Virus record (IMG/VR): IMGVR_UViG_3300044713_000232
Coordinates: 1 to 64,000 of that record
Direction: 5' to 3' (one strand)
DNA length: 64,000 nt
Origin: a virus
The notes under the pieces were generated by a model, which saw nothing but the letters and a program-made list of their open reading frames with translations, made no database searches and had not been told where the DNA came from. Position numbers and translations under genes: made by a program. Shown here in pieces: positions 2,856 to 39,991 of the stretch; the first letter of the stretch is position 1; every line of letters starts with the position of its first letter.

Positions 2856-3410
2856 CTACGCGCGCTTCGCAGCTATCAGCTGAGCTACTGCCGCCTCACG
2901 GTCGCGCACATCTCGCAGGTAACGCCATGAGAGCTCTTCGCCGAGCACGACGTTGGGCCCGGTGCCTCGGAAGTGCCAGCCGTCGATGCGGTATTGGCCG
3001 ACGCCGGTGCCGTCGATGCGGCATGTACCTTCGCGGCGAACCCAGATGCCGGCGGCGGCCGCCGCTTCGTAGATGAGGAGGATGAACTCCTCTCTCGTAG
3101 CCGGAGGCCAGGCGGAAAGCAGCACATCAATCCAGTAGTGGAACATCAGCCTGAAACCTTTCTCGGCGAACGTGATGTCTTCCCAGACGTCGCCCCGCGG
3201 CTCTTCGACGTGCGGTACGGGTAGACACGCGAAGATGCGGCAGCCCCGAGGCAGTGGTCTGTCACGCCAGTCGGTGAGGAAGGCGGCGTCGGCCGCCATC
3301 GCGAATTGAATGCAGGTAACGCAGACGGCGACAGGTGGGTGCTCCTCATCGTTGTCGGCGTAGTCTGGGAGCTCACACCAGCCTTCGCATTGGAAGCACT
3401 GTACCCTCAT
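2856..3410 (-). CDS. Hypothetical protein with N-terminal Zn ribbon
   Basis: CxxC...CxxC; start overlaps the upstream stop (ATGA). Confidence 0.55.
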   Translation of the reverse strand: MRVQCFQCEGWCELPDYADNDEEHPPVAVCVTCIQFAMAADAAFLTDWRDRPLPRGCRIFACLPVPHVEEPRGDVWEDITFAEKGFRLMFHYWIDVLLSAWPPATREEFILLIYEAAAAAGIWVRREGTCRIDGTGVGQYRIDGWHFRGTGPNVVLGEELSWRYLRDVRDREAAVAQLIAAKRA

Positions 3411-3901
3411 TCCCGTGGATCCGTGGCGCTGTACATGTGCTCCACGACGCCGCCTTTCTGAATCTCGATGATGACGCGCTCCTGCTTCAGCGCTATGCGA
3501 AGCGACTCGCCGAGCTTCAACATGTTTTGCACGAAGTCAGCTTCGCCTGTGAGATTCAAGAGAATCACCTGCGCAGCGTCTTCGTCGATGCGTTCTCCCC
3601 CGGCGGCTTCGTAGATACCGCGCTGCAAGAGGAAGCTTGCATCGCCTGATGCACCCTGCTTCTTGCGAATCGCGTAGACAGCGTCGGCGACTTGCTGAAG
3701 TGTCCACGCCGGGCGCCCCCCGACGTTGAAGCCGACGAACAGCCGTGCCCCCTCTGCCCCGAAGTCTTCGATGTCACGCGCCTCGGCGCCGTCGGCGCCT
3801 GAGGGCTGGTAGCGGTATACGGCGCCGTCGGGGCGCCACCTGAAGGTACCGCACTTCGCGTGATGCACGGCTTCGCCGAGGTAGAGGGGGATGATTGCCA
3901 T
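3407..3901 (-). CDS. Hypothetical protein
   Basis: Globular-looking ORF; TAGACT 6 nt upstream of ATG. Confidence 0.6.
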   Translation of the reverse strand: MAIIPLYLGEAVHHAKCGTFRWRPDGAVYRYQPSGADGAEARDIEDFGAEGARLFVGFNVGGRPAWTLQQVADAVYAIRKKQGASGDASFLLQRGIYEAAGGERIDEDAAQVILLNLTGEADFVQNMLKLGESLRIALKQERVIIEIQKGGVVEHMYSATDPRE

Positions 3902-3925
3902 GCGGCTAGTCTAGCGCTTGTGGCG

Positions 3926-5661: not shown

Positions 5662-8188
5662 AGAGAAGGCGTAATTGCTCCTGAGAGGTTTTGGCGCGGA
5701 TAGACGACAAGCTTTCCCCCAACCGCTCGTCCAGAGGGCCGATCGCGCGCTCGAACGTGTCTAGCTTCGTCAATATAGCCTTCGCCACCAATTCGTCAAC
5801 CGACGAACGTGCGAGAGGGAACTGAAACAGCGTCGGCATCTCCTGCCCGGGGCGGTGCAATCGCGCCATCGTCTGGAGAATCTCGTGCGGCTCCCAGGTG
5901 AGCTCCGCGTAGACACCGACGCTCGCCTGCGTGAGGCTGATACCTCCGGCAGTGACGTCGATGTTGGCACACAGGATGCGCCAATCGCTATTGATACGCC
6001 GTTGGCGCTCGCGCTGCAAGACGCCCCCGTGAATGAAAGCGGCGCCTTCGCCGAAGGCGGCTGCGAGCGCTTCGCAGACGGTGCGGCGCCAGCAGAAGAC
6101 AACGACGCGGTTGCCGGAGGCGACGTGACTCTTCACCAACTCGACGACGTGCGGCAACTTACCGTCAGCAGCAAGATCCAATGCACGCCTCAGTGCTTTC
6201 TCTGACACGCGCTTGTCGCCGATGATGCTCTTCGGGGGCGCGATGTTGGCGCGCTTGACATCGACGAGAAACGTCTGCATCGTGCGCGGTGGTAGTTGCA
6301 ACGCGACGTCTTTCTTGGTGCGCCGTAGCATGAAAAAGCGCAAGCGCTTATTCAGCTCCTCGAGATTGCTGGCGCCCTCGAATCGCCACACTGCCTTCGG
6401 CAGCTTGCTTCCGCGCTGAGGCACCTCCTCTTGATGCCCATCGCAGTTCTTACTCGCGTAGCCGTACACGACGTAGTTACCAGTATCGGTTGTTAGGGAT
6501 ACGACCTCACCCTCACCGTGCGGCTCTACGCTTACGATAGTATCCTGAGTCCTGAACCGCCCGTTCAGAATCAGCTCCTCTATGCGTTTACGTCGAACCG
6601 GCGCGCACCACGTCAAAAACTCTAGATTCCGTTGGCGCCCACCGGCTATACGGAAACGGTCACACTCGTACTTTCGGTGTGGCCCCATACCGTCAATAGT
6701 GTACGGTACGCCCAACGTAGCTAACGCGCTCTCGATAGCTGCGCAGACATCGGGGTTATGCTTACGGGATTGAGATATATTGATAGCGGTGTAAGTACAG
6801 TTACCCTCTCCGTCGTAGATGCCGCCGAGCCAACGAGCTATGCCGACATACTCCGGAGCCAACGGTCTAGGCGTGTCTATGACGTGGGCCAGATGGTTGC
6901 CCTTACGCGTACGACACCAGATGTACTTACCGTTCGACTTGTGCATGCTCGCCCACATGTGATCCGACGTACATACCAGCGTTCTGCCGGAGGCCATAGT
7001 AACTTTGACTAGCGGGGCCACACGCCTACCCACGGCTAGTACTTTAGCTGTACACAATCTGTTCTGGCCGCCGAAACCTTTACGGGGCCTGTCCGGTCTA
7101 TCGTTGGATCGCTTCCACCCTACAACGCTGTCTCCGGGCCGGATATCGCCGATAGGTTTGAACGTAAGGTCCCCCATCCACACAGGAGCGTCCGGTGGGC
7201 AGCAGTAACGTATACCGTGCGCGACGAACTTCCCGAACCTTCCGGGGCTGATGGTGTCCACGAGATTCCACAAGTCACGCGGTCTGTTTGTCAAAGGCGT
7301 GCCTGTCAGAGCTATGCGCTGTGTGCACCCCGCGGCAATCGATGCGAGCGCTTGGCTTCTGCCGCTCTTGGCATTGCTAATGTAGTGCGCCTCGTCACAC
7401 ACGAGCGTCTTCACGGCGCCGACGAGGTGCGGCGTCCACGCGTGGAGGATGGAGTAGTTGCAGACGGTCAGCGGCGCTTCTGGCAACGCGGCGGGCGCGA
7501 AGCTGACGCCGAGGCGCTTGCGCTCCTCGGGCGGGAAGCGCTTGTCGGCGAAGTCTTCGGCGTCGTCTAACGTCGGGAAGGTGTCTGCATCGTAGAACGA
7601 TGTCGTCCAGCCGATGGGCGCTTGGCCTCGCCAGTACCACGAGCGCCCCTTGTTGTCTTCTCGCGAGACTACCCAAGGGCCCGCCTTCACGCCCTCCAGC
7701 ACCTGCGGGGGCCAGGCGTCGCGCCACCACTTCTTCACCTCGGAGAAGTCGTCGTCGCCCCAGATGCCCGTGACGAAGGCGGGGCACACCACGAGAGCCG
7801 GTTGTTTGAAAGCGCGCGCGGCGCGTAGCGCCACTGCTGTCTTGCCGAGACCCATGTCGTCTGCAAGCAACACCCCCTCATCGGCGTGCGTGACGACGAA
7901 GCTGATAGCTGTGCACTGGTGATCGCGCATGTCTTCGTAGCTAGGCTGAAACCTCGTCGGCGCCTGTGACGAGATTGCTTCCACAGTGCCGTTGACGCGG
8001 ATGCCTTTTGCGGCAAGCGCCTCGACGGCGAGCGACGCGGCATCGCGATAGCCTTCCCAGACGCGCGCCTCTTTATTCCACGCCATCCCCGGCGTTTCGC
8101 GCGCCGCCTTATACAGCGCGGGGCTGTACGTGGAGCTGCGGAGGCGCCAGAGAGGGCCGTGGGGGAGCTTCTCGACGCTGATTGCCAC
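5621..8188 (-). CDS. SNF2-family (SF2) helicase containing an intein
   Basis: LADDMGLGKT, DEAHY, ALTGTP..N, MLRRTK, GISLT.A, Q..ARLHR.GQ; probable GTG start at 8188 with GAAAGG SD (the ORF-track start at 8665 is over-extended). Confidence 0.92.
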   Translation of the reverse strand: MAISVEKLPHGPLWRLRSSTYSPALYKAARETPGMAWNKEARVWEGYRDAASLAVEALAAKGIRVNGTVEAISSQAPTRFQPSYEDMRDHQCTAISFVVTHADEGVLLADDMGLGKTAVALRAARAFKQPALVVCPAFVTGIWGDDDFSEVKKWWRDAWPPQVLEGVKAGPWVVSREDNKGRSWYWRGQAPIGWTTSFYDADTFPTLDDAEDFADKRFPPEERKRLGVSFAPAALPEAPLTVCNYSILHAWTPHLVGAVKTLVCDEAHYISNAKSGRSQALASIAAGCTQRIALTGTPLTNRPRDLWNLVDTISPGRFGKFVAHGIRYCCPPDAPVWMGDLTFKPIGDIRPGDSVVGWKRSNDRPDRPRKGFGGQNRLCTAKVLAVGRRVAPLVKVTMASGRTLVCTSDHMWASMHKSNGKYIWCRTRKGNHLAHVIDTPRPLAPEYVGIARWLGGIYDGEGNCTYTAINISQSRKHNPDVCAAIESALATLGVPYTIDGMGPHRKYECDRFRIAGGRQRNLEFLTWCAPVRRKRIEELILNGRFRTQDTIVSVEPHGEGEVVSLTTDTGNYVVYGYASKNCDGHQEEVPQRGSKLPKAVWRFEGASNLEELNKRLRFFMLRRTKKDVALQLPPRTMQTFLVDVKRANIAPPKSIIGDKRVSEKALRRALDLAADGKLPHVVELVKSHVASGNRVVVFCWRRTVCEALAAAFGEGAAFIHGGVLQRERQRRINSDWRILCANIDVTAGGISLTQASVGVYAELTWEPHEILQTMARLHRPGQEMPTLFQFPLARSSVDELVAKAILTKLDTFERAIGPLDERLGESLSSIRAKTSQEQLRLLYERLKKQAADADS
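6446..7204 (-). mobile_element. Intein (~253 aa) with a LAGLIDADG-type motif, inside the SNF2 helicase
   Basis: Starts CCPPDAPV, block B CTSDHMW, WLGGIYDGEG, ends NYVVYGYASKN followed by Cys; excision restores RY|CDG. Confidence 0.88.
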
Positions 8189-9953: not shown

Positions 9954-10158
9954 GATTGCTCTCGATGGCGCAGTGCCTTCAACTTGCACTGCGCGTGCGC
10001 GAAGAGCACCGTACCGCCGCCGTCGATGCCGTAGGTCTCTCTCGTTTTGATGGAGACCGCGCGTCCGCATAGTTGGCACGGCTCGGCGCAACACAGCGCC
10101 GCGTTATGCGCCGTAGTGAAGGTGTCGCCGCAGACGCCGCACACCCACCTGTCGCCTT

Positions 10159-10356
10159 TCATGTCTTCAGTGTCTTTCTGACGCCGCTCTTCTGCTGCAA
10201 GAGCCCCGTGCCCCCGCACACCGGGCACCTGACGGCCCGGTGGTCGGCAAGCTTGGTGGGGGGCAGCTCGATGATCTTGGCGCCCTTGCAGTTCATGCAC
10301 ATGGGCGCCTCCGGCTTGGTGTCCGGGAGATCATCGTAGTCGGGCGTCGGCGTCAT
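10159..10356 (-). CDS. Small DnaJ-type Zn-finger protein
   Basis: CMNCKG...CPVCGGTG. Confidence 0.55.
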   Translation of the reverse strand: MTPTPDYDDLPDTKPEAPMCMNCKGAKIIELPPTKLADHRAVRCPVCGGTGLLQQKSGVRKTLKT

Positions 10357-10597
10357 CTGGGTACCTTGCAGGCAACATCGACCAGTTTCGAGGCTTTACT
10401 CGTGCGGTGCAGCAGCTCACGCTCCGCGCGCTCTACGAGCTTGCAGAGCAGCCCGTTCACGGCATCGTTGACTATCGGAGCGATACACTCCTCGGCCCCA
10501 TCGTAGACGTAGGCGGTGAAGCCTATCTGGGGCTCGTAACGAATACGGATCGTCGTGCCGGCCAACGAGGCGGCCAGCTGTACCTTCTCTTCGAGGG

Positions 10598-10966
10598 TCA
10601 TCGCGCCGTAGCTCCCTTCTTGCGGTACACGCCGACGTAGCACTGAAACTGCCCGACCTCCGTCAGGGCGTAGCTGAAGGCGTTGCCCGCCGCCATGTCG
10701 GCGTGCAGCCGCTTGAAGAAAGCGCGCTTCGTCATCGCCGGTTCGGATTCGCTGCCGAACCCCGAGCTGTCGACGAAGAGCTCCTCGACTTTCTCGTACC
10801 CTGGCGGCGTGTAGCTGCCCAGGAACGGGAACGGCAACGGCTTCGTGCCCGCTTCGAGGCGGCGCAGCTCCGCGACGTCGAAGATGGCGTAGGGCTTCTT
10901 ACGCTTTTGCGAGGCTTCGCGGGCGGCGTCATCGGAAAGACTGCGGATGTACTCGGGGCTCATCAT
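10598..10966 (-). CDS. Hypothetical protein
   Basis: AAGGAG SD before MMSPEY; phage early-gene style. Confidence 0.55.
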   Translation of the reverse strand: MMSPEYIRSLSDDAAREASQKRKKPYAIFDVAELRRLEAGTKPLPFPFLGSYTPPGYEKVEELFVDSSGFGSESEPAMTKRAFFKRLHADMAAGNAFSYALTEVGQFQCYVGVYRKKGATAR

Positions 10967-11514
10967 GGCGTCGACTCCTTGGATGCAGTTGCGTTGCTGG
11001 CGGTTGCGCCCGGCGGCGTCAGCGCCGTCAGTGCGAAGCCGTGGTTGCACCCCCCGATGCTCGGGTGGCATACATGTGTGGTGTCGTCGGGCTGAAGCCC
11101 CTGTAGCGCCTCAGGTAGGCGCACGACAGCGAAGTGCTTACATAGCGGGCACTTGTGTGAGACGACACTCTCGTGGATGGCGCCCTTGGCGCGCCAGAAG
11201 AAGGTGTATCCGAGGCGCATCACGCCTCCGTGTCGACTGCGCTTGCGACGAAGTCGGCGTCGAGCTCGGGGTCGGCAGCGAGCATGCGCATCGCCGTTTG
11301 GTGCATCCATTCGTTGCGTGTCATGGCTTGTCTTTCTGCTCGAGTCTCTCGAGCTGTTTGCATGCGTGCCTGAGGAGGTCGGAGAGGAAGCTCGCTTCGA
11401 TGCGCGTGAGGTACACCGAATCGTTGCCTCCGACATCGAGCTCCACGAGGGGATCTGCGTCGATGGTGTGCTCCAACGCGATGCCGATCTCCCCGACCTT
11501 ACCGAGATGTTTCA

Positions 11515-12870
11515 TCATCGAAGCACCGTCAACCTTTCCGCGCTGCGCGTTACTGCTGTGTACTTCCAGCGCATACTCGCCTCGCGATCCATCCCAAACG
11601 TTTCTGAAACCACGAGCACGTCGGGCCACCCGGACCCCTGGCTCTTGTGGCACGTCATCGCGTAGCCGAAGTCAAACAACGAGCCGAGCATGTCCCAGCT
11701 GTAGGCCTCGATGCCGCTCTCGTCGCGCGCCTCGTCGGGGTCCTTGAACGTCTTATCGCGATTGAACTGCAAACCGCACATCCTGAAGTCCTGCGCGGCG
11801 AGCCCCTCCTCGGGGAACTCGATAGAGGCTCTGTAGAGCCACGGCGTCGGGTCGGCATTGGGATCCTTAGGAACCACTTGCGCGCTATCAGCGAGTAGAT
11901 ACCCACGCATGCCGTTGAAGACACCGAAGCTTTTCTGGTTCCGCAGGCATACGACAAGCTCCGACGCTGCCGGCGGGCCCCTCAGGGCCCGGGCCTTGCG
12001 TGCCAGTCCGTTCAGCCCCACGCGACGCTTGTTCGTATAGCAGATGAGCGCGCTGTCAAAGAGAGCGTCGCGCGTCATGCCTCGCTTGAAGCGCGCCTCG
12101 ACTTCACGGGGGATGTCTCTCAAGCTGCCGAATCTGACACGCGCGCCGTCGGCGAAGCGCGTATCGTAGTCGCCGGTCTCGCGAATCGCTTTGCTCAAAG
12201 CGATGATGGGGTTGCCCTCGGCTTGGCGGTGGATGCGCTCCAGCCGAATGTCGGGGCGCTGCATCAGACTGCCGGTGCCTGACACGGGCGGCAGCTGGCC
12301 GTGGTCGCCGACGGCGAGAATCGGCAGGTCGAAGCGCCTGATGTCGGCAAGCATGTCATCTGACACCATTGACGCCTCGTCGACGACGATGAGGTCGTAG
12401 GCTCTATCGAGTTCCGTGCGCAGCGAGAAGCGTTTCTCGTGGCAGATCTCACACGGCCTCTTGACGGGCGCTTCCCCCTTCTTCCGCGGCTCCGTGCATG
12501 GGCACGGGCGGTAGATGAGGCTGTGGATGGTACCGCAGAAGTGCCTTCCCCCGAAGTCGGCGCCGTCGCGCTTCTCTTTCGCAGTGAGAATCTTGTTCGT
12601 CGTGGCGATGCCCGCGGCTTGCAGCTTGCGAGACAGCACGCTCGATGCTTTGCCGGTGAAGGCGACGAAGGCGATGAGACAGTCGGCCTCGGTGGCGAAG
12701 ACGGAGAGGAGCGTCGTCTTCCCGGTACCGGCGTAGCCCCCCATCGTCAGCGTGCCTCGCCCGCCGCGCCCACCGTCGCCGCTGATGGGCACGTCGCCGA
12801 CCCAGTCGGCGATGGTTTCGTAGGCTTCGAGCTGGTCGGGGGAGAGATCACTACGCGTTAGAGGCATCAC
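11515..12870 (-). CDS. RecD/Dda-like SF1B helicase
   Basis: GYAGTGKTT, VDEASMV, GDHGQLPPV, YAMTCHKSQGS, YTAVTRS. Confidence 0.92.
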   Translation of the reverse strand: MMPLTRSDLSPDQLEAYETIADWVGDVPISGDGGRGGRGTLTMGGYAGTGKTTLLSVFATEADCLIAFVAFTGKASSVLSRKLQAAGIATTNKILTAKEKRDGADFGGRHFCGTIHSLIYRPCPCTEPRKKGEAPVKRPCEICHEKRFSLRTELDRAYDLIVVDEASMVSDDMLADIRRFDLPILAVGDHGQLPPVSGTGSLMQRPDIRLERIHRQAEGNPIIALSKAIRETGDYDTRFADGARVRFGSLRDIPREVEARFKRGMTRDALFDSALICYTNKRRVGLNGLARKARALRGPPAASELVVCLRNQKSFGVFNGMRGYLLADSAQVVPKDPNADPTPWLYRASIEFPEEGLAAQDFRMCGLQFNRDKTFKDPDEARDESGIEAYSWDMLGSLFDFGYAMTCHKSQGSGWPDVLVVSETFGMDREASMRWKYTAVTRSAERLTVLR

Positions 12871-14248: not shown

Positions 14249-15176
14249 AGCTACACCTGCATTCCGTCTTCAAAGCGCCGCACACGGTGCGGCTCCGGGC
14301 CCGTGAGATACCACTCACGCTTTGCTTGGTGCACGCCGACGTTAGGTACGCCCGGCGAGGTACGCGAGCGCTTCGCTATACGCGCTGGCGACGGTCGTGG
14401 GTTGAAAGGTACGCGGATTCGAGCTCATGTCAGTCCTTCGTTAGTAGCCCTGTTTCCTGCCTTCAAAGAGCATGACAGCCCTCCTTTGCATCGGTCAACG
14501 CTCGCGTGCAGGCGAATGCTGACCGATACACCGGACGCGCGCGATGCGAACGTGAGCTCCGACGTGCCAATCGTCGTAGCTTGTCGCACCGGAGAGGCAA
14601 CTAGCGCCGTTACGCTTGCCGCCTCTTGCCCTAACGCGCTTGCGCGCGTCCGATATCCTCGGGCTTTGCATCATTCCTTGGGTCGCGTGGTTCCGCCACG
14701 CCGTTCGGGCTTTCATTCTTAGTGCCCCGGGCTTCCGGGCGTTTGGGTAGCCGATCGACTAACGGAGTCAGTCAACTAGCCCCTTCGCGCCAGCCCCACC
14801 CTTTGCGACGCTACGCACGCCGCACGCGGGATGTGGATGCTATGGCCGTCGCGCCGCCCCTTCGCGTGGGGCGTATCGCCGAAGCATACCCTGCACTGCC
14901 GAGCACCGAAGGCTTTCCCTTCGATCGGACCCCGTGCTGAGCGGGCGGGGAGTCGCGCTCCCCATTCGGGACTGGTTACCCTGCCTCGGCGCCTACTGCG
15001 CGCCGTCGTGTCTCTCGTGAGTACGCGGGGAAGCGAGACGCCCTTCCCACGCGCGCCCCGTTTTCGCGGGGCCCCTCGGGCGCCTTTTCCGTCGCGCCGT
15101 CACAAGGGGATGATGCACCCCCCGTGCCACGGCTAAGTGCACGAAAAGCCGAGCGCGACTTTGCCCTAGGCGCGAA

Positions 15177-15449
15177 GCGTACGCACCTCCCCGCGTAGCC
15201 GCGTACGCACCTACGCGCCTCGGCGCGTCGGCAAAAGGGCGTGCCAGGCTCGTGCGGGTTTTCATGCGACAAGGTGGGTGCGACTCCTACCTCAGCCGTA
15301 GCGCGCCAGCCGCGCCAGAAAACGCGCACGAGCGCCGAAGCCTCCCCCCTGCCCCCGCGCCCGCCGACGTCGCCACGAGACTAGAGCGCCTCCCCGCGCG
15401 CCAGAAACCCGCACGAGCGCCCCTGACCCCCCTGGCCCCCGGGGGCCCC
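15177..15449. repeat. Direct and inverted repeats upstream of the recombinase (candidate att/res site or origin)
   Basis: GCGTACGCACCT at 15177 and 15201; CGCGCCAGAAA..CGCACGAGCGCC at 15311 and 15397; perfect 14-bp inverted pair 15248..15261 / 15405..15418; four C-runs at 15420..15449. Confidence 0.6.
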
Positions 15450-24958: not shown

Positions 24959-25576
24959 CTAGCAGTAGATCTCGGTGTAGACTCCCGTGTCGCAACCGAG
25001 CGCCTGGAGCGCGTTGAGCGCATCGCCTGAGGACATCTCGACGAGCTTGGCCCAGTGGGTCGTGCGGCCCTCGAAGACGAACGTGATCTTCACGGGGAAG
25101 AACGGTAGCGTCACGTTGGACTGGAAGTCCATCCGGATGCCTTGGGTGTTACTGAGTACCCACCCGCACGTCGGGCGCCGAATCTGCGCGATGGGCGTGT
25201 AGTTCGGGTAGATGTCGAACCGCGGGGCGCCGGTGACCTTCAGAGTCGCCTCGAAGTTCGACTGAAGCGAGAAGAAGTAGTCATTCAGGTAGTCGAAGTC
25301 GCCCGAGCCGGTATTCTGGTTGTCGACCTGGTACCGGATGTCGTCGATGATGACGTCCTGAATGAGCTTGACATCCTGCCCCTGGTCCAGCGCGGCGGCC
25401 TGACTGGCCGTGCTGAACGTCGCCGCCACGCGGATGGCGTAGGGTGCCATCGGCACGCCGAGGGCCTTCGCCAGGGCAAGCCGGGGGCTGCCCATCGCGA
25501 GCATCTGGCGGATGTCCTCCGTCGAGCAGCAACAGCCCGCGGCACCGACCTTGAGACAGTAATCCTTCAGACTCAT
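24959..25576 (-). CDS. Putative single jelly-roll capsid protein
   Basis: Alternating hydrophobic strands (WVLS...IRMDF...VKITFVFEG); directly downstream of the MCP candidate. Confidence 0.45.
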   Translation of the reverse strand: MSLKDYCLKVGAAGCCCSTEDIRQMLAMGSPRLALAKALGVPMAPYAIRVAATFSTASQAAALDQGQDVKLIQDVIIDDIRYQVDNQNTGSGDFDYLNDYFFSLQSNFEATLKVTGAPRFDIYPNYTPIAQIRRPTCGWVLSNTQGIRMDFQSNVTLPFFPVKITFVFEGRTTHWAKLVEMSSGDALNALQALGCDTGVYTEIYC

Positions 25577-25672: not shown

Positions 25673-26968
25673 TTACGAAGCCCAGCCGACCGCGCAACCG
25701 CACTCGGAGCAGATCTGAGCCTGGAGGACGGCGTCCCCCTTGATCTGGTCCGCGAGAGGCTCCGTGATCTCGTACCCTTTGATCTCGACGCTCATGAGGC
25801 CCGTTCCGCCCTTGAACACGTAGTGCTCCGTGTTCTGGGTCTGGAGCACGTCGACGTTGTCCGCCGAGAGCTCGTCGAACGTCGCGCCCGCGCCCTGCGC
25901 GATGAGCGCCTGGCTCGGCGTGATGGCGTAGGGCGGGGTGCCGCCGAAGCCGCCGGTCGCGTCGAACTGCTGACGGAAGAGCGCCACTTCCGCGTTGTTG
26001 TTGTTGGCCTCGAAGATGAGACCCGGCGGAACGCCCGGCTTCAGGATGTACGGCTGCTCGAGGGTACGGAACTCCGAGTTGCCCTTGAGCATGCTGCGGA
26101 GGTCCATGCCGCCGTACGTCGCGTCGACGATGACGTCGTCGAAGGGGCGGAACTTGCCCTGGGTCTCCGTCGAGGTCGTCTGCGCACCGAGGGTGCCGAC
26201 GCGCACGAGGTTCTGCCAGAGGAAGATCTTGTTGCCGCCGATCTTCGTCGGGTCCGTGTAGCGGGCGTTGACCCGGTTCACGAAGTCGACGATCGACACC
26301 TGGCTCGAGGACGCGCTGCCTTCCTGCGCCGCGGGCGGGGTGTAGGCGGTGTCACGGAGCTGCTCGTCCATGATGTTGATGAGCGAACCGTAGGTCCACC
26401 GCAGGTTGTAGCCTCGGGCGAGGTGCCAGAAGCCGTAGTTGACCCACCAGCCCCACTGGAGGAGGGCTCGCCGCATGTTGGCCTGGACCTGCGGCGCGGA
26501 CTGGGTAGCGCCGCCGTAGACGAGGTTCGTCTGGTCGTTGACGCTGTAGTTGTCCGGGCTGTTCGGCATCGCGATGGACGACCCGGGGGTCGGGATCGCG
26601 TTGCCCTGCGCCGTCCAGCACATGGGCTCCGGCTCGAGGTGGACGCCGATGGCGCACGCGAGGACGTACGTCTGGAACTCGCCGTTGATGAGACCATCGG
26701 TCGAGTAGACGTTGTCGACGCCGTTGGGCGAGGTCCCGGAACCCAGAAGCGAGATCTGGTTGCCGAGGGTCTGCGTCACGGCGGCGTTGGTGATGGGTCC
26801 CTCGAACTCCCACTGCACCTTGGCCACCGTCGGCAAGGCGTAGATGGGACAGCTCGTCGCGCTCTTCATGAGAGCGACGATGTCAGCGTTGGGGGTGCCC
26901 TGCCCCAGCCCGGCCCCGAGGGTGAGGCGCGGGTTCTTCTGATTGGGCCTACGAATCATCTGCGGCAT
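25673..26968 (-). CDS. Putative major capsid protein (non-HK97, jelly-roll-like)
   Basis: 431 aa, very strong GC3 codon bias, beta-rich, basic N-terminal leader ending LGAGLGQ, followed by a stable hairpin; no HK97 features recognised. Fold is inferred. Confidence 0.5.
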   Translation of the reverse strand: MPQMIRRPNQKNPRLTLGAGLGQGTPNADIVALMKSATSCPIYALPTVAKVQWEFEGPITNAAVTQTLGNQISLLGSGTSPNGVDNVYSTDGLINGEFQTYVLACAIGVHLEPEPMCWTAQGNAIPTPGSSIAMPNSPDNYSVNDQTNLVYGGATQSAPQVQANMRRALLQWGWWVNYGFWHLARGYNLRWTYGSLINIMDEQLRDTAYTPPAAQEGSASSSQVSIVDFVNRVNARYTDPTKIGGNKIFLWQNLVRVGTLGAQTTSTETQGKFRPFDDVIVDATYGGMDLRSMLKGNSEFRTLEQPYILKPGVPPGLIFEANNNNAEVALFRQQFDATGGFGGTPPYAITPSQALIAQGAGATFDELSADNVDVLQTQNTEHYVFKGGTGLMSVEIKGYEITEPLADQIKGDAVLQAQICSECGCAVGWAS

Positions 26969-27019: not shown

Positions 27020-28699
27020 TTATTCGCCGACCACTCGGCGGATGTTGGGATTGTAAAGAGGCCGGATGACGCCGGACGAACCGGCTCCCGAGCCAAGAGG
27101 GGCGCCACGGAGGGAGCCCGGAGGAGGTGCCGCCGTTGCGGGCGGATTGCCCGGGGGCGTGAAGACGTTCGGGGGCTTCATGACGCCAGGGCTAGGAGGT
27201 GAAGGCGGAGACTCGCCGGGCGGAACGAACGGGTTGGGGGCCGGAGCCGTCTGAGGCACGCCACCCGCGCGCTGCGCCGTACCCTGCTGCACCTGAGCCA
27301 GAGTGGTTCCGGCGCAGCAAGCGCCGACGCCCGTCTGGCAGTTGGTGCACTGGCACCCGGAGCCCATGAGGCCGACCGAGACGCCGCCCGCCGACGGAGC
27401 GGCGAGCTGTGCGGGCGCGCTCGAAGGCGTGAGCACCGACTGCGCACTGACCTCGGGCATGAAGAGTCGCTGCCCGAAGGGTGCGTTGTTGCGGAGCAGG
27501 TATGCGACGCCGTCTGAGAGCACCTTTCCGCCCGTGCGCATCAGCGCGCCGAAGCCGAAGAACTGGACGCAAGAGCGCAAAGACGAGCTCTCGATCATCC
27601 CGCCCGCGGCGAGCGGCACGACACCGAGGCCGAGGCCCGCGGCGAGGCGCATCCACTGTCCCGCACCCCACATGGGGCCGATGACGTAGGTGGGGTTGAG
27701 GTGGCCGTTGGCGCCCGGGTCGACGTAGATCTCGTTGCCCGAGCTATCCTTGGCGCCGGTGTCCTTGAGCGCGTGCGTCGCGAGCAGACGATCGACGACT
27801 TCGGCAGCGCCGAACCCGACGAGACCGCACACGCCGCCGAGCACGCCATCCATCAAGCTGATGGGGTTCTCCATCGCGCCTCGGCGAGAGTGCCGGTGGC
27901 GACGGTGGCGACGGGGTGCCTCGTGGCTGCGGTGGCCGCGCACGTAGACGCGCTTACGGCTGCCACGGCTCTTCTTGCGGTAATAACCGCGCACGGAGTG
28001 CTTGTGGTGACCGGGCCGGCGGCGCTTGCTGCTACGGCGCCGCTTGACGGAGCCACGGCGCCTGCGACGACGCGGGGCCTCAACCGCATGAGCGGCGTGC
28101 TTACGGCGGCGCTTGCCACCCTTGCGGCGACGCTTGCGCGGGGCTTCCCACGCCGACGTCATGCCGTGGCTCTGCGAACCCCGACCGAGGCGGCGCTTGC
28201 GGGTGCGGGCAGCCTTACGGCCAGCCGCCACGCGTTTGGCGCTCTTGCGGTGATGAACCGCGTGCTTGCGCGGCTTCCGACAGCGCCTCCGGCCCCGCGG
28301 GCTCTTCAGCTTCCCGTTCTTACAGCTACGCTTACGCTTTCGCGCCATGGTCGAGGACTCCCTTGAGCGGTGCTTCTTGCTCCGGTTTCTCCGACGAGGC
28401 TTCTCCCCTGCACGGTGAGAAGTGTGCACTGTCTTACGCGCCCGTGTCAAGCGACGCGTACGTTTTTTCTCAGAAGCGCCTCGGCGCTTAGCGCGCCTCT
28501 TCTTCGCAGCGTTGCAAACGGCCCAAGGATTGGCTTTCTTGCCGCGACGCTTGTTGGAGCGCTTTACACCCTTGACACAGCGCTCGAACTTCTTGCGACT
28601 CCACGGCTTTTTGCCTTTGGAGCGCTTGGCGCGTCGACGCTTACTTGCTGCGGACACTTCGTCCTCCTCGCGCTGCATGTAATCAATATAGTCAGGCAT
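27020..28699 (-). CDS. Arg/Lys-rich DNA-condensing core protein with a hydrophobic/membrane C-terminal half
   Basis: About 250 aa of poly-R/K punctuated by EAPR, then MENP and hydrophobic helices, then a Pro-rich tail; directly upstream of the MCP candidate. Confidence 0.65.
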   Translation of the reverse strand: MPDYIDYMQREEDEVSAASKRRRAKRSKGKKPWSRKKFERCVKGVKRSNKRRGKKANPWAVCNAAKKRRAKRRGASEKKRTRRLTRARKTVHTSHRAGEKPRRRNRSKKHRSRESSTMARKRKRSCKNGKLKSPRGRRRCRKPRKHAVHHRKSAKRVAAGRKAARTRKRRLGRGSQSHGMTSAWEAPRKRRRKGGKRRRKHAAHAVEAPRRRRRRGSVKRRRSSKRRRPGHHKHSVRGYYRKKSRGSRKRVYVRGHRSHEAPRRHRRHRHSRRGAMENPISLMDGVLGGVCGLVGFGAAEVVDRLLATHALKDTGAKDSSGNEIYVDPGANGHLNPTYVIGPMWGAGQWMRLAAGLGLGVVPLAAGGMIESSSLRSCVQFFGFGALMRTGGKVLSDGVAYLLRNNAPFGQRLFMPEVSAQSVLTPSSAPAQLAAPSAGGVSVGLMGSGCQCTNCQTGVGACCAGTTLAQVQQGTAQRAGGVPQTAPAPNPFVPPGESPPSPPSPGVMKPPNVFTPPGNPPATAAPPPGSLRGAPLGSGAGSSGVIRPLYNPNIRRVVGE

Positions 28700-29252: not shown

Positions 29253-30989
29253 TTACTGCGCTTGCCCATACCTTCGACAGCGGCTCGTCACGATGCTCAA
29301 GCCGTAGATGGCGGCGGCGGCGACGGCGACGACAGCGACGCCTTTCACGATGGAGGTCACCGCATCTGCCGTGGTAGGCGGGGGCACGTAGTTGGGGTTG
29401 CGCTGGTCATCGCTGCGCAGCGGGGGCAAGTCGGGGGCCTGATTGCCGCCGGTGCTCTTGCAGTGTTGATCCACCAGAGCGCGCCACTTCTTGTAGATGT
29501 TCTCGAAGTCGTAGCCGCGCTGAATCTCGGCGTCGGCATCGCAGAGCGGTATGTCGGCGTTGTACCAGTTCATGAACGCGATGCGGTCTGCGATGTAGTC
29601 GTACTTCTGCGTCAGCGTGAAGCCGTCGGGGGCACCGTTCGGGAACGCCGCCGTCGCCGCACAGACGCTCCTGCCATCCTTGCAGAGCGCGCAGTTGTCG
29701 ACGTCGTCGGTGAGCTGGTCCCAGCCCACCAGGAGGCGGGTCTTCTGACCGACGAGCACATCGATGTTGCAGCTGATGCCGGGGATGTGCACAGCACCGG
29801 CGCCTGTAGCGCCGACGCCGGCAGGCAAGGCGCACGCGAGCTGCACCTTCAGATCCCACAGCTGTCGGGCGCGCGCGTAGTCTTTCAAGCGGCTGTAATC
29901 CGCGGGCGTAAGCGCCTGTGCGCTGAAGGCTTGCCAGTCAGCCATCGCGCTGGCGAAACCGGCGGCGTCGCTGGCGGATAGATTGGTGCACGCCTGCACC
30001 GCCGCCGCACTCTGCTTCCACGCGCTGTCGACCTGGGCTTTCAGCCCATCGACAGAAGCCTGGTCAGGCGTCTGCCCGATGCCAGCGCGGCACCAGCCGG
30101 TGCCGGTGTTGTACTCGATGCCGTGCATGCCGGAGCGGAACCACGTGCCGCTACGGAAGATGGTGCTGCCTGCCTGCGGGCGCCCGGTGTCGACGGCGGT
30201 GTCGTCGCCTGGCGCGGGGCGCGACATCGAGCCGCCACTGTTGTCGCCAGGCGCCGGGCGCGAGACGTAACCGCTGCCGCCTTGCTTGAAGCCGCCGCTC
30301 GGTGAAGCTCCCATCGTAATCAACTGCGCTCCTGAAATGCCGACGGGGCCCACGGGGGCCGTGTCGAGCGGGTTGTAGAAGGTCTGCCCCGGGACGTTCG
30401 GGGGACACCCCATGCTCCCCAGAGGCCCGACGCGGTAGGTATTGTTGGCGCCGTCGACGCCCAGCTTGTTGCCGCCTTCGTCGATGGCGATCAGCAGCAC
30501 ATGTGCCTGCTCCTTGAAGGGCTGCACACAGATCATCACCGGAATCGCGAAGGATAGGATCATCGCGCCGAGTGCCGCGGTGGCATCATCGCAATCGCCA
30601 CGTCGAAGGCACAGACCCGCTTTGCCGCGGAGGCACATCGTCGCGGATGCCGACTGTACCTGCTCCGTCTTAGCGGGGTCGGAGGCGTACATGACGAGGC
30701 GTCTGTATTCGTCGAGGCACGCCTGGCACGTCTGCGCGACGGAGGGGCGTCTTGCTCGACCGTCGAAGCCGGCGGCGCGCAACGCCTCCGCGGCGATGCC
30801 CTGCACGTCGGGGTCGTTCTGCCCTTCGCGAATCTTCTGCGCGACGGCGTCCACGCTCGCCCCGGCACCGACTGAGCCGTCGGCGTAGGGGACGACGTTG
30901 ATACGCGCACCTTCGGCTTGAGCCCTCGGGATGCCGGGGGTGAAAGACTGACTGAGCCCTAGGCCGATGCCGCGAATGCCGTTACGCAC
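29253..30989 (-). CDS. Transglutaminase-like cysteine protease with C-terminal TM (putative maturation protease)
   Basis: GDCDD (Cys 30591-30593), AHV (His 30501-30503), GVD (Asp 30453-30455) form the TGase/papain-like triad. Confidence 0.75.
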   Translation of the reverse strand: MRNGIRGIGLGLSQSFTPGIPRAQAEGARINVVPYADGSVGAGASVDAVAQKIREGQNDPDVQGIAAEALRAAGFDGRARRPSVAQTCQACLDEYRRLVMYASDPAKTEQVQSASATMCLRGKAGLCLRRGDCDDATAALGAMILSFAIPVMICVQPFKEQAHVLLIAIDEGGNKLGVDGANNTYRVGPLGSMGCPPNVPGQTFYNPLDTAPVGPVGISGAQLITMGASPSGGFKQGGSGYVSRPAPGDNSGGSMSRPAPGDDTAVDTGRPQAGSTIFRSGTWFRSGMHGIEYNTGTGWCRAGIGQTPDQASVDGLKAQVDSAWKQSAAAVQACTNLSASDAAGFASAMADWQAFSAQALTPADYSRLKDYARARQLWDLKVQLACALPAGVGATGAGAVHIPGISCNIDVLVGQKTRLLVGWDQLTDDVDNCALCKDGRSVCAATAAFPNGAPDGFTLTQKYDYIADRIAFMNWYNADIPLCDADAEIQRGYDFENIYKKWRALVDQHCKSTGGNQAPDLPPLRSDDQRNPNYVPPPTTADAVTSIVKGVAVVAVAAAAIYGLSIVTSRCRRYGQAQ

Positions 30990-31005
30990 GCGGCTAGTGT
31001 AGCAC

Positions 31006-32010: not shown

Positions 32011-32577
32011 CTATCGAACGTGGCGCTTCAGCGCCTTGTGCACCGGCGACTTCTTGTGGAAAAGGAGCCACCCGAGACCGCCGACAGCGACGACGCCACC
32101 GCCGACGGCAGTAGCCTTCTGCCATGTGGCCGCGGTGTCCCACCACAACTTGAGGCCCGTCTCCGGAGGGCACCCGTTGGCGGGACGGCTGCCGTCGGTG
32201 CAGATGGGCGTGCACTGCCCAGTGACGAGATCCACCAGCGATCCCTGCGGACAGTTGCCATCGCTCAGGCCCGTGACGTTGGAGACACAGGGGCTCGTGA
32301 CGTCATTGGGGTTCTGAAGGCTGAAACCCTGCGGGCATCCGCCATTCGCCTGGCCGACGCCGATGGGCAACCCGACGGTGCGCACATGATGCCCGCCGGA
32401 GAGTACGGCGAGGTTGGTGCGCGCCGTCATCGCGGCCTGAAGGGGCGTCGTGACGCGCCTGTTGCGCGCCGTCTGCCCGACGCCCGTCGGCGCCCCAGCG
32501 TTGCCCGTCATGGCGATGGCCTTGGGGCCGTCTCCAGAGCACGGAAGACCTTTGTCGCAATCTGAACAACATCCCAT
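32011..32577 (-). CDS. Cys-rich tail-anchored virion membrane protein
   Basis: Two GVGQ motifs, CPQG repeats, C-terminal TM plus basic tail. Confidence 0.55.
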   Translation of the reverse strand: MGCCSDCDKGLPCSGDGPKAIAMTGNAGAPTGVGQTARNRRVTTPLQAAMTARTNLAVLSGGHHVRTVGLPIGVGQANGGCPQGFSLQNPNDVTSPCVSNVTGLSDGNCPQGSLVDLVTGQCTPICTDGSRPANGCPPETGLKLWWDTAATWQKATAVGGGVVAVGGLGWLLFHKKSPVHKALKRHVR

Positions 32578-34444: not shown

Positions 34445-34488
34445 CCCGTGTAGCTTACGCTCAGGTGTCGATGTAAGCTAACGCCAGG

Positions 34489-35460
34489 ATGAAAGCCTCT
34501 ACTAAGGTGCTCCTGGGTGTCGGCGTCGCCGCCGCGCTAGGGCTCGGATTCGTCTTGATGAGCGGCAAAGCCACCGGCGGCGGTTCGCCGGGCAGCGGCG
34601 GTAACGCGGGGCTGCCCGCCAACATCCCGCTCATCGTGGGGCAGCACTACAAGCTCGTCCTCCCCGATATGCCCTCGCAGGGGCAGTCGTGGGTCATGAC
34701 GACTTCGGCACCCGGAATCGTCAGCGTCGTCGACGTCGGCTATGCCGGCGGCGCACCGACGTCAGGGCCGGGGCTACACGCGTTCACGCTGACCGGTATC
34801 TCGGCGGGCACCGCGACCATCACGGCGACGTTGATGAACAGCTCCAACGGCAAGCCTGTCTCGGGCGTATCGCCACTGACCGCTTCGGTGTCTGTCGTCG
34901 CCGGCATCGGCACCGGCACGCCGCCAGGCGGTGGCGGCAAGGGGGGTGTTGCTACCATCGGCGGTGTGACTGCACCCGCGCAGAAGGGCGGCATGACTGC
35001 CACCGGCGGCTTGAAGACGAAGGGCGGGGTCAACACTGGCGGCATCATCAACCAGCCTCCGCCTCCTCCACCGCCACCTCCCCCGCCGCCTCCGGCGAAG
35101 ACGATCACGCTCACGTGGCCCGCCTCGTTGAATCAGGCGCTCTCCAACGGACCGCAGCTCTCGAGCAGCCCTGTGTATCTCAACGCCGGTGATACACTCG
35201 TCGTCGACATCACCGGGGATACGACGTCGCTACCGACGTGCAACCAGTGGGCTGGCTGCGGCGTGTGGGGTGTCACGGGTACACCCCCGACGCTCGTATG
35301 GGTTCCCCAGGGGCTCGCGACGTCGTCAGCCTACGCGCTGACGTACATCGGGGCCGTCGTCTTCAACGCGGTGCAGACTGGTACCGGTACGCTGGTACTC
35401 ACGAAGACGTTCCAGAACGGCGCCGTCGTGACGTGGAGCATTCCGGTTTCTGTCTCTTAG
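34489..35460 (+). CDS. Membrane-anchored protein with two chagasin (I42 protease inhibitor)-like Ig domains and a 13-Pro linker
   Basis: LIVGQHYKLVLPDMPSQGQSW...GPGLHAFTLTGISAGTATI resembles the chagasin pattern (L..NPTTGY.W...G.G...F.F.A...G...I); the second domain is weaker. Confidence 0.5.
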   Translation: MKASTKVLLGVGVAAALGLGFVLMSGKATGGGSPGSGGNAGLPANIPLIVGQHYKLVLPDMPSQGQSWVMTTSAPGIVSVVDVGYAGGAPTSGPGLHAFTLTGISAGTATITATLMNSSNGKPVSGVSPLTASVSVVAGIGTGTPPGGGGKGGVATIGGVTAPAQKGGMTATGGLKTKGGVNTGGIINQPPPPPPPPPPPPPAKTITLTWPASLNQALSNGPQLSSSPVYLNAGDTLVVDITGDTTSLPTCNQWAGCGVWGVTGTPPTLVWVPQGLATSSAYALTYIGAVVFNAVQTGTGTLVLTKTFQNGAVVTWSIPVSVS

Positions 35461-39958: not shown

Positions 39959-39991
39959 GCAGAGATTCTAGCACCAACGGTGCCGCTAGAG

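Follow-up and report, generated by a model that had tools for sequence, protein, structure and literature searches.

A conserved protamine-like protein with a membrane-like domain and an apparent nested start, encoded beside a capsid-like gene in uncultured bacterial viruses

In uncultured bacterial viruses that form a lineage with genomes of roughly 65-80 kb, a capsid-like gene has as its signature partner a gene for a highly basic protein of 559 amino acids (aa). We analyzed this partner gene in a window of 64,000 nucleotides, positions 1 to 64,000 of the IMG/VR virus record IMGVR_UViG_3300044713_000232, where it occupies 27020-28699 on the minus strand. The ORF list and the comparison with orthologues indicated that the gene is genuine. 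Sequence comparison supported a conserved, protamine-like protein that is fused to a membrane-like domain and encoded in a virion-type module. Two nested sizes of the protein appear to be made from the one gene.

The 559-aa protein and its family

Single long ORFs orthologous to the gene were found at nine IMG/VR loci and 32 metagenome loci. Soil samples of the Ga02103xx-Ga02104xx series contained many members of the family, and one fragment fell within a Polyangiaceae bin. The layout of the gene and its product was as follows.

27020..28699, minus: whole gene, long isoform, 559 aa, net charge +107 (ORF list; orthologous ORFs)
28640..28699, minus: N-terminal head, aa 1-20, Met-x-Asp-Tyr-Ile/Leu-Asp ... 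Ala-Ala-Ser/Thr (conservation)
28349..28699, minus: segment unique to the long isoform, aa 1-117 (third-position excess; protein motifs kept)
27875..28642, minus: polycationic region, aa 20-275 (composition count)
28397..28405, minus: Glu-Lys-Pro motif, aa 99-101 (sequence)
28190..28249, minus: block conserved within the basic region, aa 151-170, with an Arg-Val-Ala-Ala-Gly-Arg/Lys-Lys-Ala-Ala-Arg-Thr-Arg core
28136..28147, minus: Glu-Ala-Pro-Arg motif 1, aa 185-188 (kept in relative L002; absent in L003, L004 and L005)
28070..28081, minus: Glu-Ala-Pro-Arg motif 2, aa 207-210 (sequence, orthologue alignment)
27911..27922, minus: Glu-Ala-Pro-Arg motif 3, aa 260-263 (Ser-His-Glu invariant in the close clade)
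27863..27877, minus: domain junction Ala-Met-Glu-Asn-Pro, aa 275-279, with MENP at 276-279 (82-sequence alignment)
27794..27862, minus: hydrophobic Gly-rich segment 1, aa 280-302 (family-averaged hydropathy)
27584..27655, minus: hydrophobic segment 2, aa 349-372 (family-averaged hydropathy)
27524..27574, minus: conserved weakly hydrophobic segment, aa 376-392, with a Gln-Phe-Phe-Gly-Phe-Gly core (alignment, hydropathy)
27314..27355, minus: Cys cluster, aa 449-462 (C451 and C454 nearly invariant)
27110..27259, minus: Pro-rich linker/tail, aa 481-530 (sequence)
27023..27118, minus: conserved C-terminal tail, aa 528-559 (conservation in relatives)
27020-27022, minus: stop codon

The polycationic region contained 75 Arg, 42 Lys and 17 His residues, no Asp and seven Glu, giving a net charge of +110; the full protein carried +107 and its C-terminal 284 aa +2. 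In the head, D3, Y4, A17 and A18 were invariant in six orthologues, and the head consensus was kept in 28 lineages. The block at aa 151-170 was also invariant in six orthologues and was found in L006 and L028 too. Both hydrophobic segments were kept across the family and contained Gly-x-x-x-Gly pairs. Their hydrophobicity was moderate only, and they may not span a membrane. An earlier note, made from the letters alone, had described an Arg/Lys/His-rich protein fused to hydrophobic helices and a Pro-rich tail, and composition, hydropathy and conservation bore this out.

The family comprised 314 clusters at 50% identity, and a four-part plan was common to every member. A short, conserved, acidic/aromatic head is followed by a polycationic body, an Asn(-Pro) junction and a conserved C-terminal domain, which in all members consists of two Gly-rich hydrophobic helices, a Cys cluster, a Pro-rich linker and a conserved tail. 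The body was of low complexity and variable in length. Across the family, the basic N-terminal extension measured about 180-350 aa (183-350) and carried net +53 to +123. Basic charge showed no trend with size among the few long contigs, whose size range was narrow.

No Pfam family matched the 559-aa protein at E up to 0.1, and neither Pfam nor PHROG gave a match among 82 family members. Searches of PDB sequences returned nothing for the protein, its family or its neighbours, and Pfam and PHROGs likewise. Among 50,697 GenBank phage records, neither blastn nor tblastn returned a match to the region, to the C-terminal domain or to the capsid candidate described below. In the ESM Atlas, the C-terminal domain matched unnamed clusters only, with scores <0.9.

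Public gene calls shorten most members by beginning at either the internal ATG or the junction Met, so the family is systematically mis-annotated. Short database proteins beginning with 'MENP...' or 'MAKK...' were considered as separate subfamilies. This was rejected, as all 32 loci that were complete on the 5' side had an ORF that continued to the head.

The nested internal start

An in-frame ATG at 28348 with its own AAGGGAG Shine-Dalgarno (SD) sequence had been pointed out in the earlier note. Both were present in the sequence, and the comparison of relatives supported a start there.

28346..28348, minus: internal in-frame ATG, Met118, start of the 442-aa short isoform (comparison; public calls P0001 and P0002 start here)
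28358..28364, minus: AAGGGAG SD-like core, 9-nt spacer to the internal ATG (sequence; kept in L002 and L003)

Of 32 full-length relatives, all 32 had an SD-like core 4-12 nt upstream of the first ATG beyond the head, against a background of 19%. Before other internal Met codons, such a core was present in 4 of 55 cases. The residues encoding the core varied among lineages. At the start of the head, 9 of 32 loci had an SD-like core, and 12 used GTG. The junction Met was considered as a third start and rejected; its SD-like core, present in 6 of 28 loci, was at background.

Relatives differed mainly at third codon positions in the head segment (21/19/45 for the three positions, compared with L003), indicating that this segment is coding. 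The gene thus has what marks nested in-frame isoform genes, namely a conserved start with a ribosome-binding signal of its own, lying within a longer ORF that is likewise conserved. Of all claims of the analysis, the nested start has the best support, and the comparison supports it strongly. An SD sequence is missing from most genes of this virus, and in 14 of 41 the core is only weak, so the use of SD sequences by the host is uncertain.

Lambda C/Nu3 and herpesvirus UL26/UL26.5 also give 3'-co-terminal long and short products in one frame, beside a capsid gene. There, the nesting fixes the ratio of a majority form to a minority form that has an additional N-terminal module. In those genes this module is a protease, and the part common to both forms is an acidic scaffold that leaves the capsid, whereas in the 559-aa family the extra module is a head of 50-120 aa and the shared part is polycationic and hydrophobic.

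The capsid-like partner and the type of virus

The 559-aa gene lay directly upstream of the capsid-like gene in 36 of 36 testable loci.

25673..26968, minus: capsid-protein candidate, 431 aa, partner gene directly downstream (adjacency; AlphaFold model)

The capsid candidate had a GC3 of 0.93, the highest in the genome, and a net charge of -11. Its AlphaFold model, from a 63-sequence run, had a pLDDT of 82.5. The best fold matches (Z 4.0-4.8) were capsid proteins of SPV1, HCIV-1, PRD1/PR772 (P3), STIV and P23-77, and the fold search gave no HK97-type match to the model. These matches were weak, all at Z <5, and were mixed with non-viral beta-sandwiches. The one to HCIV-1 had Z 4.8 (rmsd 4.0, 135 aligned), an SPV1 capsid chain was among the top matches at Z 4.4-4.6, and PRD1 P3 reached Z 4.2. 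The virus looks tailless, and its capsid candidate may have a jelly-roll fold; because all matches have Z <5, we treat a tailless, membrane-containing architecture as a candidate reading. A BFVD match was I1ZBH9 (probability 0.97). It led to a comparison with the Salisaeta phage SSIP-1, whose 211-aa structural protein showed no similarity by profile; this cultured phage has no protamine-like protein.

The genome is complete at 75.6 kb, with a 144-nt terminal repeat (143 of 144 identical). Its six frames gave no match to the terminase profiles Terminase_6N and TerL_ATPase or to Pox_A32 and FtsK_SpoIIIE, and Pfam identified no portal or terminase among the large ORFs. Walker A motifs were confined to VapE, an SF1 helicase and an AAA_24 protein. 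The block around the 559-aa gene was rich in tail-anchored membrane proteins, and the many single-pass membrane proteins of the module are indirect evidence for a lipid membrane in the particle. It also encoded a chagasin-type protease inhibitor, and a transglutaminase-like Cys-His-Asp protein was encoded two genes upstream.

These results largely refute the reading that the virus is an ordinary tailed phage whose HK97-type head has diverged strongly and that the 559-aa protein is its internal or scaffolding protein; we regard this reading as highly improbable. In its favour, the gene occupies the scaffold position, a Peptidase_S74 fibre chaperone domain is encoded in 1269-2822, and SU10_MCP was present in 11-35% of the members of the capsid candidate's nearest ESM Atlas clusters (score 0.94). 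However, comparison with the SU10 capsid profile was null (probability 0.4%) and the good capsid model matched jelly-roll proteins only, and these weakly, and an SU10-type HK97 capsid was rejected on these grounds. The complete genome without terminase or portal and the lack of PHROG matches also argue against a tailed phage.

Among known viruses, Tectiviridae, P23-77 and HCIV-1 are tailless viruses of bacteria or archaea, with a jelly-roll capsid over an internal membrane with small membrane proteins, and their capsid proteins gave weak fold matches to the candidate. PRD1-type and sphaerolipovirus-type phages are described as packaging naked DNA through a special vertex with an FtsK/A32-type ATPase (PMC4267777). 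Their genomes are 10-30 kb. An FtsK/HerA/A32-type ATPase was not found in the virus studied here. We know of no protamine-like protein in these phages. Particles of Portogloboviridae (SPV1) have three layers, with protein-condensed DNA at the core, lipid around it and a jelly-roll shell outside, a precedent for a nucleoprotein core within a membrane and such a shell (PMC8459092). Unlike the virus studied here, SPV1 (capsid proteins VP4 and VP10, nucleocapsid protein VP1) is an archaeal virus with a 20-kb genome. Its VP1 is a small separate protein with no fused hydrophobic domain.

Proposed role, rival explanations and meaning

The explanation we favour, and to which we give an even chance, is a two-isoform particle protein that binds DNA and is fixed to the membrane or to an inner layer of the shell. 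The gene would give two 3'-co-terminal products: a weakly initiated, minority long form carrying the head, and a strongly initiated short form of 442 aa from Met118. Both would be particle components. The polycationic body would bind and neutralise the 75-kb genome, the hydrophobic domain would fix this body to the inner membrane or inner shell layer, and the head on the long form might serve as a handle for assembly or targeting. As for the Glu-x-Pro motifs, the simplest reading is that they would mark where each of the successive cationic helices starts. That the protein condenses DNA and is tethered to a membrane is plausible. Several points stand against this core-protein explanation. By the positive-inside rule, the +110 domain would lie on the cytoplasmic face, which in PRD1-type assembly becomes the capsid-facing and not the DNA-facing side of the vesicle. 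The weak capsid fold matches, the moderate hydrophobicity of the segments, the uncertain SD use and the lack of scaling between charge and size count against it as well.

The same topology would suit a polycation that does not bind DNA and acts as a glue between the anionic membrane and the acidic inner face of the shell, or as a scaffold or tape measure. Its basic domain would lie on the capsid side in PRD1-type assembly, the capsid candidate is acidic, and a position directly upstream of the capsid gene is the usual scaffold site. We nevertheless consider such a role very unlikely. With +53 to +123 per chain and almost no acidic residues, the protein is charged far more highly than known membrane-capsid linkers, a low-complexity body of 183-350 aa is unlike a ruler, and no packaging motor was found that would handle the DNA otherwise. 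The protein might also be a pilot or ejection protein that enters the host with the DNA, its Gly-rich helices forming a membrane conduit and its polycation shielding the DNA from nucleases or defence systems. The Gly-x-x-x-Gly pairs fit this idea, and adenovirus protein VII remains on the incoming genome (PMC5491326). The amount of charge, however, suggests a bulk and not a pilot role, and we think this role unlikely as the main one; it is compatible with the core-protein explanation.

Processing at the acidic motifs had been proposed in the earlier note. The motifs do punctuate the basic tract (EKP at 99, EAPR at 185, 207 and 260, and MENP at the junction), and they are enriched beyond chance. 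In 89 family representatives, EAP was observed 24 times against 2.9 expected from shuffles (z 13.5), an 8-fold enrichment. Glu-x-Pro was enriched 4-fold: 16% of all Glu residues in basic bodies were followed by x-Pro, compared with a Pro frequency of 4%. However, Glu-x-Pro punctuation was present in only about 44% of lineages, and Glu-Ala/Thr-Pro was absent from the basic body in 18 of 32 full-length relatives. The suggestion that 3407-3901 and the JAB protein contain similar motifs was not supported; EAP followed by Arg/Lys was confined to the 559-aa protein among the 48 predicted proteins of the genome.

On the processing reading, the protein would be a core polyprotein that a viral protease cuts at Glu-x-Pro into protamine-like peptides of about 20-50 aa, as with adenovirus pre-mu/pVII, and a last cut at MENP would free the peptides from the membrane anchor. 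The enrichment favours it, as do the six regular EAP-Arg-rich units of 19-29 aa that run up to the ENP junction in L052 and the junction Glu present in most lineages. The transglutaminase-like protein is a possible protease, in one relative an intein is inserted at its active-site Cys, and the chagasin-type inhibitor lies in the same block. Adenovirus offers a precedent: its core precursors are trimmed during maturation by a virus-encoded Cys protease, and mu has ~19 aa (PMC4246237), similar in size to the EAP-delimited units. Against the reading, besides the relatives and other viral proteins without the motif, L004 and L005 lack it at aligned positions, the junction Glu is replaced by Ala or Ser in close relatives, and nothing links the neighbouring enzyme to Glu specificity. 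The case for cleavage at Glu-based motifs is weak, a helix-start role accounts for Glu-x-Pro equally well, and we judge the polyprotein reading improbable.

Adenovirus pVII and pre-mu (pX) are rich in Arg, condense DNA independently of its sequence and are packed together with the genome in a jelly-roll capsid (PMC4246237). Motifs fitting the consensus of the adenovirus protease AVP, (M/I/L)-x-G-G↓x or (M/I/L)-x-G-x↓G (PMC4246237), were not found in residues 1-279, and the three matches were all in the hydrophobic/Gly-rich C-terminal part. Pfam detected no sequence homology to adenoviral core protein families in the protein or the 82 members. Unlike the 559-aa protein, adenovirus core proteins have neither a membrane-like domain nor a nested start. 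Adenovirus also has a packaging ATPase, whereas none was found in this virus, and the host here is bacterial.

A single self-cleavage at Asn278-Pro279 is another possibility of low probability. By the succinimide chemistry of reovirus mu1 and aquareovirus VP5, it would part the DNA-bound polycation from the hydrophobic domain at maturation or entry. In the 82-sequence alignment, N278 was the sole invariant residue within the N-terminal 350 residues and P279 was at least 90% conserved; the junction was Asn-Pro in 30 of 32 full-length loci. The 559-aa protein therefore shows the conserved Asn-Pro at the would-be cleavage point that distinguishes autocleavers of the mu1/VP5 type. Autocleavage at Asn42-Pro43 is documented for VP5 and mu1, where N42A abolishes it and the conserved Asn-Pro borders a membrane-active segment of a particle protein (PMC9148132). 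However, Asn-Pro is also a common helix N-cap and N1 pair that could open the hydrophobic helix, and two lineages have Asn-Ala. The 559-aa protein has no homology to mu1/VP5, in which the membrane-active part is the N-terminal fragment, and cleavage here is hypothetical. No other protein of this genome was found to have the basic-Asn-Pro-helix design. L004 encodes several small proteins of this design.

A more far-reaching form of the core-protein explanation, which we put forward as a rather doubtful possibility, would dispense with a packaging motor. A membrane-anchored protamine, in two isoforms at a fixed ratio, would condense the replicated genome on a patch of membrane, and a jelly-roll shell would close around it. 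The long isoform would nucleate or position the assembly, and Asn-Pro self-cleavage would release the core at maturation or entry. To our knowledge, every well-studied dsDNA phage, whether tailed or membrane-containing, pumps its DNA naked into a shell formed beforehand. Cores of protein-condensed DNA occur in eukaryotic viruses (adenovirus, baculovirus) and a few archaeal viruses. Motor-free encapsidation by a protamine, if true, would be a route so far without a known example among bacterial viruses.

The family-wide nested start is a clean case of nucleotide-level selection for a ribosome-binding site, and it offers a testable handle on the use of the two forms. Because the pairing with the capsid-like gene is constant and the complete genomes have no recognisable packaging ATPase, the family, with its >300 clusters, may mark a widespread lineage of soil and freshwater bacterial viruses built on a different principle.

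The protein and its family

The protein under study is a candidate particle protein with the following parts.

27020-28699, minus strand: ORF encoding 559 aa
Residues 20-275: basic body with 75 Arg, 42 Lys, 17 His, 7 Glu and 0 Asp (net charge +110)
Residues 275-279: Ala-Met-Glu-Asn-Pro junction
Residues 280-302: Gly-rich hydrophobic segment 1, C-terminal to the junction
Residues 349-372: Gly-rich hydrophobic segment 2, C-terminal to the junction

Its other 284 residues are close to neutral. The two hydrophobic segments are followed by a weaker third segment, a Cys cluster, a Pro-rich stretch and a conserved tail. The motifs listed in the earlier note were found: EKP at 99, EAPR at 185, 207 and 260, and MENP at 276-279. 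The Cys cluster (27314-27355) is one of several at the ends of module proteins, with others at the C-terminus of the capsid candidate (431 aa, 25673-26968, minus strand) and at the N-termini of a 205-aa protein (24959-25576) and a 188-aa protein (32011-32577). These clusters could be metal sites or interlayer disulfide cross-links.

The protein and its neighbours had no Pfam or PHROGs match, and no GenBank phage record matched the region in blastn and tblastn searches. A word-indexed search gave three relatives of the C-terminal part. A profile of this part gave 314 matches with E ≤ 0.001 among 1.84 billion cluster representatives, 123 of them at ≤ 1e-30. None of the 82 family members checked had a Pfam or PHROG family. 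Family DNA was retrieved from IMG/VR (9 loci) and from metagenomes (36 loci). Short database entries, starting at the junction Met or within the basic region, are common. Wherever the 5' side of a locus was complete (32 loci), the upstream reading frame stayed open to a conserved N-terminal head, indicating that the short entries are truncated gene calls or contig ends. Gene callers cut the family systematically at an internal ATG or the junction Met (for example, public entry P0015 versus its locus, L021:3275-4789), and many entries of 250-450 aa cover only the 3' part of a gene encoding 470-640 aa.

The basic bodies in these 32 loci are 183-350 aa long, with net charges of +53 to +123. The head consensus is Met-x-(x)-Asp/Asn/Ser-Tyr-Leu/Ile ... 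Asn-Arg ... Pro-Glu-His-Ala-Ala, often continued by Pro-Val-Phe-Tyr-Glu and Leu-Thr-Lys; the window's own clade has a diverged form. Universal in the family is the order of head, polycation, Asn-Pro junction and hydrophobic domain. A variant on an 83.5 kb IMG/VR contig (L006:9458-11026) has a basic body punctuated by Asn-Pro, not Glu-x-Pro, including Met-x-Ser-Asn-Pro twice. It keeps an Arg-Val-Ala-Ala-Gly-Lys-Lys-Ala-Ala-Arg-Thr-Arg block, continues with a hydrophobic segment and acidic Gly-Glu-Tyr-Ile-Glu-Thr-Gly repeats, and is followed by a LAGLIDADG-type ORF (11428-12108). The sole match among 185,579 species-representative genomes was a short contig (DATJYG010000466.1, 2.3 kb) binned with a Polyangiaceae (myxobacterial) MAG, a weak hint at the host.

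The nested start

The in-frame ATG at 28348-28346 (Met118) and the AAGGGAG at 28364-28358 were exactly as first described. The two closest genomes retain GGGAG 9 nt upstream of Met118, and Met118 is the start of two public gene calls. In every one of the 32 full-length loci, the head is followed by a first Met (at residue 52-130, usually before Ala-Lys/Arg) that is an ATG with an SD-like core (GGAG, GAGG, AGGA, GGGA or AAGG) 4-12 nt upstream, against a background of 19% per codon in the same basic bodies. This strongly supports the earlier suggestion of an internal start with its own SD. Five-base cores precede 18 of the 32 (background, 3%). Other internal Mets have an SD-like core in 4 of 55 cases, and the conserved junction Met is at background (6/28). 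Of the 32 annotated head starts, 9 have such a core and 12 are GTG. The amino acids encoded by the core vary widely among lineages, indicating that the conservation is of nucleotides.

Upstream of the internal start, differences between relatives (seven pairs) fall mainly at third codon positions, and the head motifs are conserved; the region is thus coding as well. On the simplest reading, the gene gives two 3'-co-terminal products, of which the long one is initiated weakly and the short one strongly. The short form, from Met118, is 442 aa long, and its basic part has a net charge of +68. A caveat on this reading is that only 14 of 41 genes of the window virus have an SD-like core, even a weak one. 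Many genes instead carry a TA-purine-x-C-T-like hexamer (TAGACT, TACACT, TAAGCT or TAGAAT) just a few bases upstream of the start codon, for example within 3902-3916, 30990-31004, 34470-34488 and 39959-39973. The hexamer might act as the -10 box of promoters for mRNAs with a short leader or none, or as a different signal for initiation.

Punctuation and junction

The Glu-x-Pro punctuation motif is real. Among 89 family representatives, EAP was seen 24 times (2.9 expected, z = 13.5) and ETP 12 times (1.0 expected). In the basic bodies, x-Pro follows 50 of 306 Glu, at a Pro frequency of 4%. The consensus is a small or aromatic residue, Glu-Ala/Thr-Pro and three Arg/Lys. In the relative L052, six such units of 19-29 aa run up to the ENP junction. 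The earlier note read these motifs as protease sites, which they could be, making the protein a processed polyprotein. However, only 14 of 32 full-length relatives have the motif, 35%-identical orthologues lack it at aligned positions, and no other protein of this virus carries it. The motifs could equally mark where successive cationic helices start, each with Pro and an acidic residue at its N-terminus.

The junction Asn is the most conserved position of the N-terminal half. It is invariant in 82 sequences, with the following Pro at least 90% conserved. A single self-cut here, which would make the protein a self-cleaving anchor, is a testable alternative: reovirus mu1 and aquareovirus VP5 are documented to cleave themselves at Asn-Pro (PMC9148132), but a helix cap would account for the pair too. 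Several small proteins of a relative (L004:5430-5885, 6098-6544, 6554-7165, 14595-14996 and 15006-15398) are smaller versions of the design, with a Met-Ala-Arg-rich start, (Glu)-Asn-Pro and one hydrophobic helix. This suggests that these viruses use the Asn-Pro-helix junction as a general module of membrane proteins.

The capsid candidate, the module and a proposed role

A capsid-candidate homologue is the next gene in 9 of 9 IMG/VR loci and in all 27 metagenome loci with ≥ 300 nt downstream. The candidate's GC3 (0.93) exceeds that of every other gene in the genome, and its family has at least 162 proteins, mostly from 60-80 kb contigs. Its AlphaFold model (63-sequence alignment) is mostly beta and confident (pLDDT 82.5, pTM 0.82). 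Foldseek and two VIA-align runs gave weak matches only, with jelly-roll capsid proteins topping every list and no HK97-type protein among the matches.

Structural matches of the capsid-candidate model
HCIV-1: Z 4.8
SPV1: Z 4.4-4.6
PRD1/PR772 P3: Z 4.0-4.2
STIV: Z 4.1
P23-77 VP16 and VP17: Z 4.0
Papilloma and polyoma L1/VP1: among the list tops

A language model pointed to SU10-type capsid proteins, but a profile comparison did not bear this out.

The whole IMG/VR virus record (75,631 bp; the window is its bases 1-64000) is classed as linear. It has a 144-nt terminal direct repeat (1-144 versus 75488-75631, 143/144 identical), indicating a complete circular or terminally redundant genome. A six-frame search of the complete genome gave no match to two terminase families, Pox_A32 or FtsK, and Pfam found no portal or terminase among the large ORFs. 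Walker A motifs are confined to replication proteins, and the module is rich in single-pass membrane proteins. The earlier picture of a tailless, probably membrane-containing virus would fit this evidence.

In the protein two genes upstream of the basic protein's gene (29253-30989), Cys127, Asp132, Cys133, Asp134, His163 and Asp179 are invariant, as are Gln161 and Asp170 in this transglutaminase-like protein's orthologues. One orthologue (L005:5973-8276) has an intein of ~330 aa directly before Cys133 (Gly-Asp, intein Cys-Phe-Pro ... Ser-Asn, then Cys-Asp-Asp), marking Cys133 as essential; the four others are without it. The module's only plus-strand gene (34489-35460) matches chagasin-family cysteine-protease inhibitors (Inhibitor_I42, E = 7e-9); its product has an N-terminal hydrophobic segment and shares a block with the Cys-His-Asp protein. 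Three paralogues (1-897 and 1269-2822 in the window; L011:1805-3211 in a relative) share a Met-Gly-Ala-x-Arg-Ser-Ser N-terminus, and one carries a terminal Peptidase_S74 intramolecular chaperone domain, like fibre/spike proteins. The L011 locus also encodes a 565-aa beta-helix protein (9964-11661).

The sequence comparisons establish the gene, its family and architecture, its pairing with the capsid candidate and the start signals. From these we infer that both products of the nested gene are particle components. The polycation would neutralise and compact the 75-kb genome; offsetting a substantial share of the ~151,000 phosphate charges would take between hundreds and a couple of thousand copies. 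The hydrophobic domain would anchor the polycation to the inner membrane or shell, and the head, on the minority long form, may have an assembly role. Topology is the main difficulty for a DNA-binding, membrane-tethered polycation. The positive-inside rule places the basic domain on the cytoplasmic face, which in PRD1-type assembly becomes the capsid side, not the DNA side. Rivals to this proposal, besides the processed polyprotein and the self-cleaving anchor above, are a lipid-capsid glue, with the polycation joining the two layers, and a pilot protein.

By function, the nearest analogues are pVII and pre-mu of adenovirus (PMC4246237) and the SPV1 nucleoprotein core (PMC8459092). The protein has no homology to them and no AVP-type site; a membrane-like domain and nested isoforms are absent from both. 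In the literature searched, such a protein was not described for any bacterial virus. Compared with known viral polycationic core proteins, the kind to which it is assigned, it is new in its putative membrane anchor, its family-wide nested start and its occurrence in a bacterial virus for which no packaging motor could be recognised.
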